DNA of 19,658 bases from a virus. Below are positions 1,253 through 19,658 of this stretch, one piece after another (the first letter of the stretch is position 1; each line of letters opens with the position of its first letter). The translations under genes and the position numbers were made by a program. The stretch lies in UHGV virus genome UHGV-0171543. The stretch is one strand, 5' to 3'. A model generated the notes under the pieces. It saw only the letters and a program-made list of their open reading frames with translations, was not told the origin of the DNA and did not search any database.

Positions 1253-1771
1253 CTAAATGGATAATTGCATGTCAAGACTTTTAACAGCAATATGTTTAAC
1301 TTTCTCAACACGTTTACGCATTTTGAAAGCATTTTGCATTGGTTGGTACAAAACAAATAATGATGCTTTCAGGATGTCGTCAATTTCATTTCTACAGGTT
1401 GCCAGTGAAGGTTTTCTCCATCCCTCGCCACCACGTCCACACATCTTGCGTGGCTTTGCAGTCGCGTGATAGTAGGATGCAATTGCTCGCTTAGATGAAC
1501 CATGAGCGTAGTAGCTGAGGAGGATGCCAAAGGCTTTCTTGTCAATGCACATGACGGAATCAACGACCTGAGAAATCAACATTCCATCATCATCATTGCA
1601 CATTGGCCTTGTCATAACTCTTCCCGGTTCTACGCTCTCCATGAACTTCGCTATTACGCTGCTCATGCGCTTTTCCAGACGACCTGAATAAACCCATGCG
1701 CCCCACAGTTCAAGCCAGCCATTCAGCCACTCATGCTGTTCTTTGGTGAGGTTTAGTTCTCTTATGCTCAT
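1253..1771 (-). CDS. Putative late-gene antiterminator (Q-like)
   Basis: 172-aa ORF between NinH and the lysis cassette, the Q position in lambdoid phages. Contains several Cys residues (MCND...MCID...MCGR...TCRN) consistent with a zinc-binding antiterminator. Assignment is by synteny, not strong sequence recall. Confidence 0.5.
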   Translation of the reverse strand: MSIRELNLTKEQHEWLNGWLELWGAWVYSGRLEKRMSSVIAKFMESVEPGRVMTRPMCNDDDGMLISQVVDSVMCIDKKAFGILLSYYAHGSSKRAIASYYHATAKPRKMCGRGGEGWRKPSLATCRNEIDDILKASLFVLYQPMQNAFKMRKRVEKVKHIAVKSLDMQLSI

Positions 1772-4507: not shown

Positions 4508-5944
4508 TCAGAATCCTCCTTTCTTCTTGGACTGCGGTTCCTCGCGTTCACGTCGGCGCATTTCAGCAGACTGTTGGTCTGTGTCATAAATAGCGCCATT
4601 TGCCTGAATGCAATACACCGTGCCGGTATTGCCATGACGATTGAGACGAAGGATTAGTTCGGTTTCACCAGGTGGAACACTGTCATCAAAAGCGCCTTCA
4701 CGATGGATCCCAACCCAATAATCGCAATCCTGTTCAATCTGCCCTGTATCTCGTGAGTCACTTGGTAATGGGCGTTTATTGGTTCGGCTTTCCAGTGCGC
4801 GGTTAAGCTGTGTCAGAAGCACAACAACGCAATCAAGCTCTTTGGCAAGGTTCTTCAGTCCTTTGGTGATCATGCCGTAAGCAAGGTCGTTGCGATCGGC
4901 CTTCTCAGCGGTCATTAGTGTCAGGTAATCGACCAGAATCATGCCAACACATCCTTTTTCTCGCTTTATTCGACGGCTTTCGCTGACGATTTGAGCCAGA
5001 GATAATCCCGGCGTGTCGTCGATGTAAAGCATGTCGATTTCACTCAAGCGATTAGCTGTTTCGATTGCCCTGTTGAAGTCACCATCGTAATCACCCTGAT
5101 AGCCGTCATCAGCGTCATTTGTCGCCGGAAGGTAAAAAATATTCGGGTTAACACCTGACTTCTGTCCCACCAGTTTTTCCAGTATCTGGTCACCTGGCAT
5201 TTCAAGGCTGAACATCAGAGCGGGCTTTTTCTCATGCACTGCGCAGTTGATTGCCATCTGGCTGTATATCGTCGTTTTCCCCATCTTAGGGCGAGCGCCA
5301 ATGACAAACAGAGAGCCTTTCACCAGACCTTTCGGTGACAGCATCCTGTCCAGCGATGGGATCCCTGTGCTCATTCCTCGTTGTTCTCCTGACGGGTCAA
5401 ATCGCTTCTCAAGGTCGCTAACCCAGTCTTCCATGACCTCACCAAATGAGCGAAGGCCGCGACGCGATCCGGTTTTTGCATGGTCTGTCAGTTGCGTGAA
5501 AATCGCCTGAATAGCTTCGTACTTCTGCGTTGCAGTCATTCCGTTGCGGGAATAGAGCAATTCCGTCGCTTCAGTCATGCGGTTGATGGCGTAGCGTTCC
5601 ATTGCGGTTTCACGAACCTGCATTGCATAGGCAACGATGTTTGCTGCGCTTGGCGTGTTCTTTGCGATCTCAGCGATATAAGCAAAACCGCCAACAGACG
5701 CCGTTAACGATTTACGCTCCAGTTCATCGAAAAGCGTCAGGCCATCTACTGGCTTTTGCTCCCGGTGCATTCTGGTTATTTCTTCGAAAAGGATTTTGTG
5801 TGGTCGGCCGTAAAATGAATCAGGCTTCAGCATCGCCAGAACTTTCTGGACGCGCTCACTGCTGTCATCATCCAGAAGCAATCCACCAATCACCGCCTGC
5901 TCTGCCTCGATGCTATGGGGCGGCGCATAAAAATTATCGGTCAT
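4508..5944 (-). CDS. DnaB-family replicative helicase (lambdoid P-position helicase)
   Basis: About 478 aa from the ATG at 5944, which has an AGGGTG Shine-Dalgarno-like element upstream (the ORF track extends to a GTG at 5959). Walker A GARPKMGKT, DnaB-like N-terminal domain, Walker B-like ILVDYLTLM. Overlaps the O stop. Confidence 0.9.
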   Translation of the reverse strand: MTDNFYAPPHSIEAEQAVIGGLLLDDDSSERVQKVLAMLKPDSFYGRPHKILFEEITRMHREQKPVDGLTLFDELERKSLTASVGGFAYIAEIAKNTPSAANIVAYAMQVRETAMERYAINRMTEATELLYSRNGMTATQKYEAIQAIFTQLTDHAKTGSRRGLRSFGEVMEDWVSDLEKRFDPSGEQRGMSTGIPSLDRMLSPKGLVKGSLFVIGARPKMGKTTIYSQMAINCAVHEKKPALMFSLEMPGDQILEKLVGQKSGVNPNIFYLPATNDADDGYQGDYDGDFNRAIETANRLSEIDMLYIDDTPGLSLAQIVSESRRIKREKGCVGMILVDYLTLMTAEKADRNDLAYGMITKGLKNLAKELDCVVVLLTQLNRALESRTNKRPLPSDSRDTGQIEQDCDYWVGIHREGAFDDSVPPGETELILRLNRHGNTGTVYCIQANGAIYDTDQQSAEMRRREREEPQSKKKGGF

Positions 5945-6833
5945 CGTGTTCACCCTCACGAACTTTCAGGTAGGTATTGTCGTTAAGCAGGAAATCAAAT
6001 CCCTTTTTGTGCCAGACGGTTCCGCGTTGATGGTTTGGGCGTTCTTCGAACATCCATCGGCAATTTTCGCCTACGTAGCTCAAATAATTTCTCCAGTCCT
6101 GCATCGAGAACCCATGCCCGTCAAGCTGGCGGGTTATCACTCCGGCTTTGCGCCAGAACGTTCGGATCTGGTTTTTACGCTTGTCATTCAGTGCGCGGAT
6201 TCTTGGCGCTTCAGGAAGGATTTCGTGGTAAGCATCGACAACATCCTGACAGCTAACGGAAGGTTTTTTCTTGTCAGACTTTTTGTCTGCTGTGGCACTC
6301 TCTAATACGTCAGTATTAGAGATAATATTATTATATTCTTTATCTGTGGTAATTTGCTGGTAATCTGCTGGTACAGTATTGCTTACAGGCATTGGTATTG
6401 CTGGCTTTGAGGTGGTAATTTGCTGGTAATCTGCTGGTACAAAATTTGACTGATAATCGTCATATTTCTCTACCGAGAAAACTGAGAATTTACCGTGTGA
6501 AACCCAGTCAATCATGCCGAGTTTTTTGAACTTTCTAAGCAGGTACTGAACGCGATCTGGTTTGAGTCCTGTTTCAAACGCCAGAGAGTTTCTACCGCCA
6601 AGTAGCTTACCTCTGCCTACCAGAATTTCTCCTGCGTCAGTCATTACATACTCAGGCGTATGCTTTGCTTTGAGGATTAAGTGAACCCACAGATGTGCTG
6701 CTTCTGCGTCCTTGTAAAACGGCACATCCATAATTTTACGGTGCAGCAAGGCATACCCCTTACCGCTGCTTTGATGCGGTTGTTGTAGCCTTCTGGCCTC
6801 TCTGGCTTCGGCTAGATTAGATATGTTACTCAT
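5934..6833 (-). CDS. Replication initiator O-like protein (non-lambda allele) containing the origin iterons
   Basis: 299-aa ORF directly downstream of cII in the O position. The repeated peptide [10 protein letters not shown] is encoded by the DNA iterons. The N-terminal domain does not match lambda O as I recall it. Confidence 0.8.
6300..6441. repeat. Putative replication origin inside the O gene: iterons plus adjacent AT-rich segment
   Basis: GGTAATTTGCTGGTAATCTGCTGGTACA occurs twice (6348..6375 and 6414..6441), each made of two approx. 10-bp GCTGGTA units. A perfect 8-bp inverted repeat (TCTAATAC-GTCA-GTATTAGA, 6301..6320) and an AT-rich run (6321..6345) lie just beyond, downstream in the O reading direction. 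Confidence 0.65.
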
Positions 6834-6972
6834 GACCTTTCTCCTTCTGCATCAGCTTCACCTTTTCCAACTCAGCCCGGAATCGACCAGGCTGCTTGAA
6901 GCTGGACAGGAAGCGATCACGTAGTATGTGTTTGTGAATTTTGTCCTGGTAAGGACTGAGTTGTTTTGTCAT
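6826..6972 (-). CDS. Small hypothetical ORF between cII and O (48 aa, basic)
   Basis: Below the ORF-track length cutoff. Minus-strand ATG at 6972 preceded by AGGAG about 7 nt upstream. Its stop overlaps the O start (ATGAGTAA). Hand translation [48 protein letters not shown]. Confidence 0.35.
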
Positions 6973-7004
6973 AATGACTCCTGTGGATTGATCCAGTAAT
7001 TCCC

Positions 7005-7304
7005 TCAGAATTCCATCTGGATTTGTTCAGAACGCTCGGTCTTGCACACCGGGCGTTTTTTATTGGTGAGTCCATCAAGCGCATACTTAAAAGCCCTGCT
7101 AATCGGACTGATGTCTGATGCCATTCCAAAAGCACACAGAACCGAAGCAATAAATCTCCAGTCCGTTCTGCTTATCTTCGATTCATGACAGCCAATCATC
7201 TTTGCCAGACCGCGCTGGGTAAGCGTGGACAGGTTGATGAGTAAATCTGTTTCTGCGCGATCAACGTCGCGCTGTGATAGTTTGCTGTAACTTGTTTGTT
7301 CCAT
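7005..7304 (-). CDS. cII: cII-like transcriptional activator (mosaic: lambda-type C-terminus, different N-terminal domain)
   Basis: 99-aa ORF at the cII position. The C-terminal [17 protein letters not shown] matches the lambda cII C-terminus as recalled. The N-terminal 75 aa carries a different HTH-like segment ([18 protein letters not shown]). Confidence 0.7.
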
Positions 7305-7368
7305 TTCTTACTATTTCCATAGGTAAATAATCACTAATACTCATCTTTCGATGAGTGCTTAATTAGTT

Positions 7369-7402
7369 ACCGCGTTGTCGGCGGTGCAGATTGATAAAGA
7401 GC
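7369..7402 (-). promoter_or_regulatory. nutR-like site: boxA plus P22-type boxB hairpin
   Basis: In the rightward transcript, CGCTCTTTATCA (boxA-like) is followed by ACCGCCGACAACGCGGT (hairpin with GACAA loop). A second hairpin ACTCATC-GAAA-GATGAGT lies at 7338..7355. Confidence 0.6.
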
Positions 7403-7410
7403 GGTGTTAC

Positions 7411-7620
<210 letters not shown>

Positions 7621-7708: not shown

Positions 7709-8425
<717 letters not shown>

Positions 8426-8432
8426 CACGTAA

Positions 8433-8870
8433 ATGATTAAAGAACGTATTTCTTATATCATTCCGATTGCGATGGATGAAGGCAACCCCGTAACTCCAGT
8501 TCTTATCTATGAAATGGATAAAGACTCCCATGAAGTGGATCTGTCATTTGGCGCTTTTTTTATCGGCCTTAAGGCTACAAAAAAATATTCCATAGGCATT
8601 GAGGTTTTCAATGCTCAAGAAATACCGATACCAATTGACACAAAACTGTACTCCAACCATAAGTTTTTTACGGTAGCAGAAGCCAACGATGGAGAAACCA
8701 TCGTATCAACTTCTATGAGAATTAACTTCCCAAGGGTGAAAATTATCAAGCCTGGGATATTCGAAGTTAGAGCATCACTGGTTAATCCTGAGAAAGGCGA
8801 AGTAATTGATGTAAAAAGTTCGTTTTTTGACGTGAAGATAACAGGATCAGTTCGCGATGAGTTTAGATAA
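8433..8870 (+). CDS. Hypothetical protein A of a two-gene cassette at the rexA position (unknown function)
   Basis: 145-aa ORF starting 7 nt after the cI stop, same strand. No TM segment and no motif I recognise. Confidence 0.7.
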   Translation: MIKERISYIIPIAMDEGNPVTPVLIYEMDKDSHEVDLSFGAFFIGLKATKKYSIGIEVFNAQEIPIPIDTKLYSNHKFFTVAEANDGETIVSTSMRINFPRVKIIKPGIFEVRASLVNPEKGEVIDVKSSFFDVKITGSVRDEFR

Positions 8871-9228
8871 CAAGGTTGCTCAGCTTCGTCCAAATCAAAA
8901 CATATCTCGCCCAATTGGACACTATTACACTGATGATGCATACTCACGGCATGGTGGAGGAAACGGCGGAGGTAACATGCTTGAGGCTAGAGTTGCAAAG
9001 CTAGAGTCTGATGTTGAATACATCAAGCGCGATCTCGCTGAGGTAAAGTCAGATATAAAATCTGTTGATTCTCGTCTGTCAGGTATTGAGACAAGCATTA
9101 GCTCAGCAAAAACCACCATTAAGGCATCTGCGGTCGTTGTCAGTTTCGTGTTCGCATTTTGCGCCTACATTTTTGGAAGTTATGTTTCCAAAATCCTTGA
9201 TGCCTTAAACGGACTCATTCTTAAGTAA
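8857..9228 (+). CDS. Hypothetical membrane protein B of the cassette: Gly-rich linker, amphipathic coiled coil, single C-terminal TM helix
   Basis: 123-aa ORF overlapping gene A by 14 nt. An alternative start at ATG 8977 is preceded by GGAGGT and would give 84 aa. Heptad-like segment LEARVAKLESDVEYIKRDLAEVKSDIKSV, then hydrophobic AVVVSFVFAFCAYIFGSYV near the C-terminus. Confidence 0.7.
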   Translation: MSLDNKVAQLRPNQNISRPIGHYYTDDAYSRHGGGNGGGNMLEARVAKLESDVEYIKRDLAEVKSDIKSVDSRLSGIETSISSAKTTIKASAVVVSFVFAFCAYIFGSYVSKILDALNGLILK

Positions 9229-9521: not shown

Positions 9522-9556
9522 TGCTCTTTAACTTCGATGGGGCGCTGACAAAGCGC
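9522..9556 (+). promoter_or_regulatory. nutL-like site: boxA and P22-type boxB
   Basis: TGCTCTTTAAC (boxA-like, 9522..9532) followed by GCGCTGACAAAGCGC (9542..9556, 4-bp stem with GACAA-containing loop), in the pL leader upstream of N. Confidence 0.65.
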
Positions 9557-9720: not shown

Positions 9721-10029
9721 ATGACGGTAATCGTGTACGGAAAATCAACATTTGCAGGAAATGCCAAAACTCGCCGTCATGAGCGGCGCAGAAAGCTGGC
9801 TATCGAGCGTGATGCTATATGCAACATCATCGATTCGATCTTCGGTACAGACAGTGATGAACCTTTTCAGGAAAAACCGAGAAAGCGTTTAAATCTTTCT
9901 GAAAAAGCAATATCACTCAGCAACATTCGTAACCAAAATACCGATGAATGCAGTGGAAGTATTTGTCTTCCAAATGTAGCTCTTTACGCGGCAGGCTACA
10001 GGAAATCAAAACAACTGACGGCGAGATGA
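9721..10029 (+). CDS. N: N-family transcription antiterminator, P22 gene 24 type (arginine-rich motif)
   Basis: 102-aa ORF, first gene after pL, with GAGGA RBS. N-terminal GNAKTRRHERRRKLAIER is the P22 N arginine-rich boxB-binding peptide as recalled. Not lambda N. Confidence 0.85.
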   Translation: MTVIVYGKSTFAGNAKTRRHERRRKLAIERDAICNIIDSIFGTDSDEPFQEKPRKRLNLSEKAISLSNIRNQNTDECSGSICLPNVALYAAGYRKSKQLTAR

Positions 10030-18390: not shown

Positions 18391-18609
18391 ATGTACTTGA
18401 CACTTCAGGAGTGGAACGCACGCCAGCGACGCCCAAGAAGCCTTGAAACAGTTCGTCGATGGGTACGCGAGTGCAGGATATTCCCTCCTCCGGTTAAGGA
18501 TGGAAGAGAGTATCTGTTCCACGAATCAGCGGTAAAGGTTGACTTAAATCGACCAGTAACAGGTAGCCTTTTGAAGAGGATCAGAAATGGGAAGAAGGCG
18601 AAGTCATGA
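18391..18609 (+). CDS. xis: Excisionase
   Basis: 72-aa ORF MYLTLQEWNARQRRPRSLETVRRWVRECRIFPPPVKDGREYLFHESAVKVDLNRP..., matching lambda Xis as recalled. Its 3' end overlaps the int start. Confidence 0.92.
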   Translation: MYLTLQEWNARQRRPRSLETVRRWVRECRIFPPPVKDGREYLFHESAVKVDLNRPVTGSLLKRIRNGKKAKS

Positions 18610-19658
18610 GCGCCGGGATTTACCCCCTAATCTTTATATAAGAAACAATGGATATTACTGCTACAGGGACCCAAGGACGGGTAAAGAGTTTGGATTAGGC
18701 CGAGACAGGAGGATAGCAATCACTGAAGCTATACAGGCCAACATTGAGTTATTTTCAGGACACAAACCACAAGCCTCTGACAGCGAGAATCAACAGTGAT
18801 AATTCTGTTACGTTACATTCATGGCTTGATCGCTACGAAAAAATCCTCGCCAACAGAGGAATCAAGCAGAAGACACTCATAAATTACATGAGCAAAATTA
18901 AAGCAATAAGGAGGAGTCTGCCTGATGCTCCACTTGAAGACATCACCACAAAAGAAATTGCAGCAATGCTCAATGGATACATAGACGAGGGCAAGGCGGC
19001 GTCAGCCAAGTTAATCAGATCAACACTGAGCGATGCATTCCGAGAGGCAATAGCTGAAGGCCATATAACAACAAACCCGGTCGCTGCCACTCGCGCAGCA
19101 AAATCAGAGGTAAGGAGATCAAGACTTACGGCTGACGAATACCTGAAAATTTATCAAGCAGCAGAATCATCACCATGTTGGCTCAGACTTGCAATGGAAC
19201 TGGCTGTTGTTACCGGGCAGCGAGTTGGTGATTTATGCGAAATGAAGTGGTCTGATATCGTAGATGGATATCTTTATGTCGAGCAAAGCAAAACAGGCGT
19301 AAAAATTGCCATCCCTACAACATTGCATGTTGATGCTCTCGGGATATCAATGAAGGAAACACTTGGTAAATGCAAAGAGATTCTTGGCGGAGAAACCATA
19401 ATTGCATCTACTCGTCGTGAACCGCTTTCATCCGGCACAGTATCAAGGTATTTTATGCGCGCACGAAAAGCATCAGGTCTTTCCTTCGAAGGGGATCCGC
19501 CTACCTTTCACGAGTTGCGCAGTTTGTCTGCAAGACTCTATGAGAAGCAGATAAGCGATAAGTTTGCTCAACATCTTCTCGGGCATAAGTCGGACACCAT
19601 GGCATCACAATATCGTGATGACAGAGGCAGGGAGTGGGACAAAATTGAAATCAAATAA
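18587..19658 (+). pseudogene. int: Lambda-type tyrosine integrase disrupted by a +1 frameshift (single extra C near 18767..18768)
   Basis: Residues 1 to about 58 (MGRRRSHERRDLPPNLYIRNNGYYCYRDPRTGKEFGLGRDRRIAITEAIQANIELFSGHK) are in one frame and stop after 70 codons. The rest of Int (HKPLTARINSDNS...DKIEIK, with catalytic-domain motifs) continues in another frame. The span is 1072 nt, not a multiple of 3. Removing one C from CACAAACCACAAG restores the lambda reading HKHKPL. Confidence 0.85.

Follow-up and report, generated by a model that had tools for sequence, protein, structure and literature searches.

An ordinary phage 21-type cII gene and its overlapping predicted oop terminator in a lambdoid phage genome

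The open reading frame at 7005-7304 of virus genome UHGV-0171543 (the window analysed here is the whole stretch of 19,658 nucleotides) is in all probability, which we put at about 0.88, a normal member of the lambda cII / P22 C1 family, in an allele that first became known from phage 21 and is frequent among Shiga-toxin phages. To judge from its sequence, every feature that could be examined fits membership of this family, and the gene is an ordinary one that is already known in the literature. The gene and the neighbours that define its setting are as follows.

7005..7304, minus strand: cII gene, ATG start, 99 aa, TGA stop; phage 21/phi24B-type allele of the lambda cII / P22 C1 family
7369-7403, minus strand: nutR, with boxA CGCTCTTTA and boxB ACCGCCGACAACGCGGT
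7411-7611, minus strand: cro, lambda-type, upstream of cII (Pfam Cro, E 2.5e-34)
7712-8425, opposite strand to cII: cI, lambda-type
6826-6972, minus strand: orf48 (48 aa, DUF2740; 'orf48' of HK022, gp53 of HK97), between cII and the O-like gene
5934-6833, minus strand: O-like gene
4508-5959, minus strand: DnaB-like gene
9524-9556, plus strand: nutL, with boxA and boxB GCGCTGACAAAGCGC
9721-10029, plus strand: N, 68.6% identical to P22 gp24

The full-length protein matches the Pfam profile PF05269 (Phage_CII) over residues 1-93 and profile positions 1-91 of 91 (E 6.3e-35; 119.7 bits against a curated cut-off of 21.3 bits), and it also matches PHROG 191, 'CII-like transcriptional activator' (E 5.7e-39), and the lambda CII structure PDB 1xwr (E 2.1e-7). 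NCBIfam has no model that matches this cII, nor one that matches lambda cII. In its locus the gene occupies the pR operon slot, where it follows cro, nutR and tR1 and precedes the replication genes. The first-pass annotation, made from the sequence alone, had called the protein a mosaic cII and had kept in view the possibility that it lies outside the cII family; PF05269 and PHROG 191 place it within the family, with an N-terminus that is diverged from that of lambda.

The allele is widespread. In a tblastn search, this cII was found in 322 phage records, 254 of them at least 80% identical, and this cII DNA type is present in 1803 of 5426 complete E. coli genomes, with the PGAP label 'CII family transcriptional regulator'. 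The protein is 94% identical to the cII of HK629, and it resembles two further relatives over all 99 residues, VCK insertion included: phage 21 cII (AJ237660; 93% identity) and the CII of phi24B and Stx2a phages (HM208303; 98 of 99 residues identical), phi24B having D92 where this protein has E92. Phage 21 and phi24B also have the same oop overlap and the same position and sequence type of the pRE box, the second pRE repeat being TTGC in phage 21 and TTGT here. The flanks are unlike those of either phage, with lambda-type cro and cI upstream and an HK022-type orf48 downstream. In the cII proteins of HK97, HK022, mEp234 and HK106, the N-terminal 77 residues are 92-99% identical to those of this protein, whereas at the tail these phages carry the other allele, TKKKSPAATEDFKQIDMQF, and show corresponding compensatory changes in the oop terminator; HK97, mEp234 and HK106 also pair a lambda-like cI/cro with this cII type. 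The likeness to lambda cII (NC_001416; PDB 1xwr, 1zpq, 8igr) extends to family, length class, position of the helix-turn-helix (HTH) and the invariant residues A, G, S and SR, and the two loci share the gene order cro-nutR-cII, the oop overlap, the TTGC-N6-TTGC boxes and a 13-nt gap to the -10 element. Compared with lambda cII, the N-terminus is 4 residues longer, and a 2-residue and a 3-residue gap follow the recognition helix.

The combination of a lambda-like tail with an N-terminus unlike that of lambda was published for phi24B in 2015. Specifically, the body of phi24B CII was described as similar to 933W CII and its carboxyl terminus as lambda-like and a target of FtsH, and the TTGCN6TTGC repeat was found 'in the same locations', with one nucleotide changed (Veses-Garcia et al. 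2015, PMC4651098). An earlier example is phage epsilon34, in which N-terminal similarity is weak and C-terminal identity is 16/18, and which nonetheless has TTGCN6TTGC/T at both pRE and paQ (Villafane et al. 2008, PMC2629481).

The C-terminal part of the protein is the following.

7008..7073, minus strand: C-terminal tail, residues 78-99, lambda-like; corresponds to the FtsH degradation signal of lambda cII

Aligned with lambda cII, 18 of these 22 residues are identical, in keeping with the first-pass description of the last 20 or so residues as a lambda match; the tail reads LTNKKRP(VCK)..., with VCK where lambda has AA. Residues K82, K83, P85, T89, Q94, M97 and F99 are invariant across the cII lineages compared. 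The same annotation had linked the retained C-terminus to proteolytic control, which agrees with reports that tie this region to FtsH proteolysis (PMC5869508; PMC4651098); according to the statement in PMC5869508 that cites Kobiler 2002, the C-terminal 16 residues of lambda cII are both required and enough for degradation by FtsH. By likeness to lambda, the sole phage in which this function is known, the tail of the present protein would act as an FtsH signal.

At the DNA level, similarity to lambda near cII is confined to 6965-7070, and the next lambda match begins at 7397, at the 3' end of cro; cII codons 1-77 and the nutR/tR1 region have no detectable DNA similarity to lambda. The closest relatives change along the locus. 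Codons 1-77 share 96-99% DNA identity with mEp234 and phi24B, and for codons 78-99 the figure is 96% with phage 21, 88% with lambda and 68-71% with mEp234, HK022 and HK97. After the stop codon the DNA is 97% identical to HK022 and HK97, and the 5' part of orf48 is 100% identical to HK022. On the other side of the gene, the nutR-tR1 segment (7305-7396) is unlike mEp234, phi24B, 21, lambda, HK022 and HK97, shares 99% identity with a group of Stx2a phages and has further matches in P22-like Salmonella phages. Because the identity partners switch at the tail and again past the stop codon, the pattern calls for recombination joints on either side of the tail. The mosaic cII of the first-pass annotation is borne out in so far as there is a joint near codon 77/78, visible in the segment identities and in the phage 21 record AJ237660, which annotates a 'border lambda immunity' inside cII; what does not stand is a fusion to a different DNA-binding domain. 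By these comparisons the joint is no new fusion but the one classically placed at the right edge of imm21.

Hairpins, labels and module types in this region call for some remarks of their own. A hairpin, ACTCATCGAAAGATGAGT (7339-7356, minus strand), lies between the nutR boxB and the cII start, in the place of tR1, but has no clean T-run. The N/nut module is P22-type, whereas cI, cro, OR and OL are lambda-type; the boxB sequences of nutL and nutR are, we assume, those of P22. The PHROGs label of the orf48 family, 'tail protein', seems to be a mis-annotation in view of where the gene lies.

It could be argued that the gene is not mosaic at all, and that the tail resembles that of lambda through purifying selection only, on the FtsH signal and the oop terminator, without recent DNA exchange. 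The seven invariant tail residues, found in every cII lineage, and the preservation of the terminator hairpin by compensatory changes would both be expected on such an account. However, the synonymous sites are nearly identical to lambda as well, with 1 difference in the last 12 codons, and in mEp234, HK022 and HK97 the N-terminal coding part is 96-99% identical, yet the tail reaches only the 68-71% given above; the second switch of partners, past the stop codon into HK022/HK97-like DNA, also argues for exchange. Selection as the only cause is therefore unlikely. Our reading is that the lambda-like tail has, as far as the sequence indicates, two causes: a short recombining DNA module (6965-7070) that carries oop, and dual coding with the oop terminator. 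The elements of this module are:

6982..7062, plus strand: predicted oop antisense RNA gene, overlapping the last ~19 cII codons and colinear with the oopRNA of phage 21 (644..724 in AJ237660)
7029..7061, plus strand: oop terminator tO, a 12-bp hairpin plus T-run (terminator scan), antisense of cII codons KKRP..TERS
6967..6975, plus strand: probable pO promoter with the extended -10 TGTCATAAT; the orf48 start codon, on the opposite strand, overlaps it

The interval 6965-7070 is 91.5% identical over 106 nt to lambda 38693-38591, which is the oop interval; in lambda, 52 bases of oop overlap the 3' end of cII (PMC5869508). The -10 of pO lies in a block, TTTTGTCATAAT, that is invariant in all six lineages aligned, and the position of the promoter is inferred relative to the 5' end of lambda oop. 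An Rfam scan of the window at gathering thresholds returned two tRNAs and nothing for oop.

Read on the cII strand, the codons AAA AAA form the T-run of the terminator, CGC CCG G one arm of its stem and CC GAG CG the other, and the VCK/AA difference from lambda falls in the loop. The terminator fold is the same in every cII lineage looked at (12 phages). Among 7 distinct sequences, which amount to about 3 independent lineages and from which the structure itself was read, pairing extends to 98.7% of cells, with changes on both sides in 5 of 11 pairs; slid controls gave 40-65% pairing and at most one pair changed on both sides. These figures are supportive rather than conclusive evidence that the pairing of the oop terminator has been kept through compensatory changes across cII lineages. 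Correspondingly, the residue pairs that distinguish the two tails, R..R of the lambda type (R84/R91, CGC/CGT) and S..D of the HK97 type (TCC/GAT), are base-paired partners. We tentatively suggest, as a possibility that we hold to be rather doubtful, that the cII tail is an exchangeable cassette and that its amino acids are for the most part set by the antisense oop terminator, R84/R91 changing to S/D together in the HK97/933W-type tail. It has been speculated that the tail alleles differ in FtsH sensitivity (PMC4651098); if the two do, recombination at the oop module would reset how often lysogeny occurs and leave DNA recognition untouched. That tail residues are coupled through the oop terminator, and that the tail may be exchanged as a cassette, is the only mildly new angle here, and it is mildly instructive that one and the same stretch of ~60 bases holds the degradation tail of cII as well as the oop terminator and a recombination joint.

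One gene of the window is not intact. The lambda-like integrase (18587-19658, plus strand) carries one extra C relative to lambda near 18767 and so falls into two ORFs (18587-18799 and 18744-19658), which reflects either a true frameshift in a defective prophage or a sequencing error; in the former case the pI arm of the circuit may be dead, as the integrase it would serve is frameshifted. The split integrase could be taken to mean that cII, too, is a decaying, non-functional remnant in a defective prophage, a view we regard as improbable: the cII frame is intact and shares 98-99% identity with its counterparts in sequenced Stx2a phage genomes, its pRE and oop module and the neighbouring genes (cro, cI, N, O-like, DnaB-like) are all open, and the interruption in int could itself be an error of sequencing.

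The claim that residues 1 to about 75 are unlike lambda is confirmed by alignment. BLASTP against lambda cII (NC_001416) gives 37 identities in 89 positions, and residues 1-77 are about 27-30% identical to lambda cII; when the N-terminal 77 aa are compared alone with lambda residues 1-75, BLASTP returns no alignment, being too insensitive at such lengths. Low identity of this order is compatible with homology. Residues 1-77 alone match PF05269 over profile positions 1-76 (E 2.4e-26, 92.2 bits), and lambda cII residues 1-75 cover the same positions of the profile. Within this part lies the following feature.

7164..7217, minus strand: helix-turn-helix region, about residues 30-47, aligned with the HTH of lambda cII

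We take the limits of the lambda cII HTH to be residues 26-45. In an hhalign comparison of N-terminal profiles (7 sequences of 21/HK97 type against the lambda/P22 type) the probability is 95.4% and E is 1.7e-8; residues 1-52 pair with lambda 1-48, and the HTH segments superpose. Additionally, A34, G38, S42, S45 and R46 are invariant in an alignment of 10 cII sequences of all types. A single-sequence AlphaFold model, poor at a mean pLDDT of 50.6, has helices at 11-27, 30-37, 46-58 and 65-80 that are only loosely suggestive. Because the N-terminus matches PF05269 on its own, because its HTH aligns with that of lambda by hhalign and because these residues are invariant, the sequence identifies it as the homologous cII helix-turn-helix domain, diverged, not foreign, and the proposal of a different N-terminal DNA-binding domain is refuted by the same three observations. 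Apart from S42, S45 and R46, the residues of the recognition helix are not those of lambda, and given these differences a subtle shift in half-site or spacer preference may be possible.

The same annotation had expected the protein to read a motif other than TTGCN6TTGC, and pRE, pI and paQ to have co-varied with it; the check it had proposed, a search of the cII 5' region, the xis region and the Q region for a shared direct repeat, gives the opposite outcome, as the shared repeat is TTGC-N6-TTG(C/T) itself. This motif was searched for as an exact match on both strands of the 19.7-kb window, and the relevant sites are:

7282..7295, plus strand: predicted cII box of pRE, TTGCTGTAACTTGT, an exact match, antisense to cII codons 4-8
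7309..7314, plus strand: pRE -10 hexamer TACTAT, 13 nt past the box, spaced as AAGTAT is in lambda; its coordinates match the -10 annotated in EF120460
18365..18378, plus strand: predicted cII box of pI, TTGCGTGTAATTGC, immediately before the xis start region and reaching into it
18392-18397, plus strand: pI -10 TGTACT, 13 nt past the box
1446..1459, plus strand: predicted paQ-type cII box, TTGCGTGGCTTTGC, antisense inside Q
1473-1478, plus strand: paQ -10 TAGGAT, 13 nt past the box
1253-1771, minus strand: Q (Pfam Phage_antitermQ)

There are three exact matches in the window, all on the plus strand, which is the strand of pRE, pI and paQ. This total is what chance alone would give (2.88 expected over 39,316 strand positions), and allowing one mismatch brings in nothing but noise, with 46 matches where 49.6 are expected. 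The placement of the three is another matter: the joint chance of matches in the 30-nt pRE zone, the 80-nt pI zone and the 506-nt Q antisense, estimated from the chance density, is ~5e-7. The gap of 13 nt to a -10-like hexamer is found at all 3 window sites and at pRE, pI and paQ of lambda.

Each of the three sites has counterparts in other phages. The pRE motif lies at the same position in 9 cII loci (lambda, 21, HK629, mEp234, HK97, HK022, a P22-like Salmonella phage, Hafnia yong1 and Dewey); the equivalent box is annotated as 'CII binding site at pRE' in the mEp234 record EF120460, and a putative cII site is annotated at the pRE equivalent in the HK629 record JQ182735. Affinity at pRE may differ owing to TTGT in the second repeat. 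The pI box is identical to lambda 29104-29091 at 14 of 14 positions, in a 1.55-kb block that is 97.7% identical to lambda. The Q gene is of the 21/Sf6/P22 group, its Pfam family name being presumably different from that of lambda Q. Its paQ box occurs at the same Q codons in phage 21, Stx2a_F349, Hafnia yong1, Edwardsiella GF-2 and a Providencia phage (5 Q genes, four genera), with two wobble positions constant across those genes while spacer and flanks vary; the conservation could partly reflect the conserved amino acids A-x-P-R. The Q of HK639, at 48% identity the most distant homologue compared, is without the TTGC-N6-TTGC box that the other Q genes keep.

Since a lambda-type repeat with lambda spacing is found at all three expected sites, the evidence points to a recognition motif unchanged from that of lambda, and co-variation of the promoters is contradicted by a pI box that is that of lambda though the cII type differs. 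It is thus highly improbable that a foreign DNA-binding domain was swapped onto a lambda tail and reads another motif at co-varied pRE, pI and paQ, for although the N-terminal identity of ~27%, the failure of BLASTP on the N-terminal parts alone and the lack of DNA similarity to lambda over codons 1-77 would suit such a swap, the Phage_CII match and HTH-to-HTH alignment of the N-terminus and the lambda-type repeats at the three promoters speak against it, as does the record of a lambda h434 imm21 hybrid, which joins a 21-type cII to a lambda backbone. In classical genetics, lambda imm21 hybrids lysogenise. Low identity in the N-terminus of a cII protein does not, then, imply a new target motif.

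A cII replaced by a genuinely non-homologous protein has a different appearance. YdaT of CP-933P occupies the equivalent slot after cro and acts at a pRE-like promoter, but has a POU-type domain, no detectable cII similarity and an inverted repeat, TTGATTN6AATCAA, as its site (PMC9986795); the protein encoded at 7005-7304 has none of these traits.

As a normal cII, the protein would work as in lambda, whose cII architecture is summarised in PMC9986795; the sequence itself shows family membership, the limits of the module, the placement and spacing of the motif and the terminator pairing, and from homology we infer DNA binding, activation, proteolysis and oop expression. On the lambda model, cII would be made from the pR transcript after cro-nutR-tR1, and as a tetramer it would bind TTGC-N6-TTG(C/T) straddling the -35 region at pRE, pI and paQ. 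Once activated, these promoters would drive cI, int and the anti-Q RNA, respectively, and the level of cII would depend on FtsH, through the C-terminal tail, and on the antisense oop RNA. The window can thus be described as a standard lysogeny-establishment circuit assembled from familiar lambdoid modules, namely lambda-type cI/cro, P22-type N/nut and 21-type cII and Q, and its significance beyond correct annotation is small.

Three further observations concern the surroundings. Downstream of cI, in the place of lambda rexA/rexB, lie two plus-strand ORFs (8433-8870 and 8857-9228; PHROGs 5893 and 6136) that could be exclusion genes expressed in the lysogen; PADLOC gave no defence match to either save a weak CorA-like one, and the ORF at 8857-9228 has a weak XhlA-like coiled coil. 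Two minus-strand tRNA genes (1037-1109 and 1118-1189) are located between Q and the lysis genes, an arrangement also annotated in Sf6, as 'similar to phage 21'. The lysis genes are also 21-type, with a 71-aa holin and a 165-aa lysozyme.
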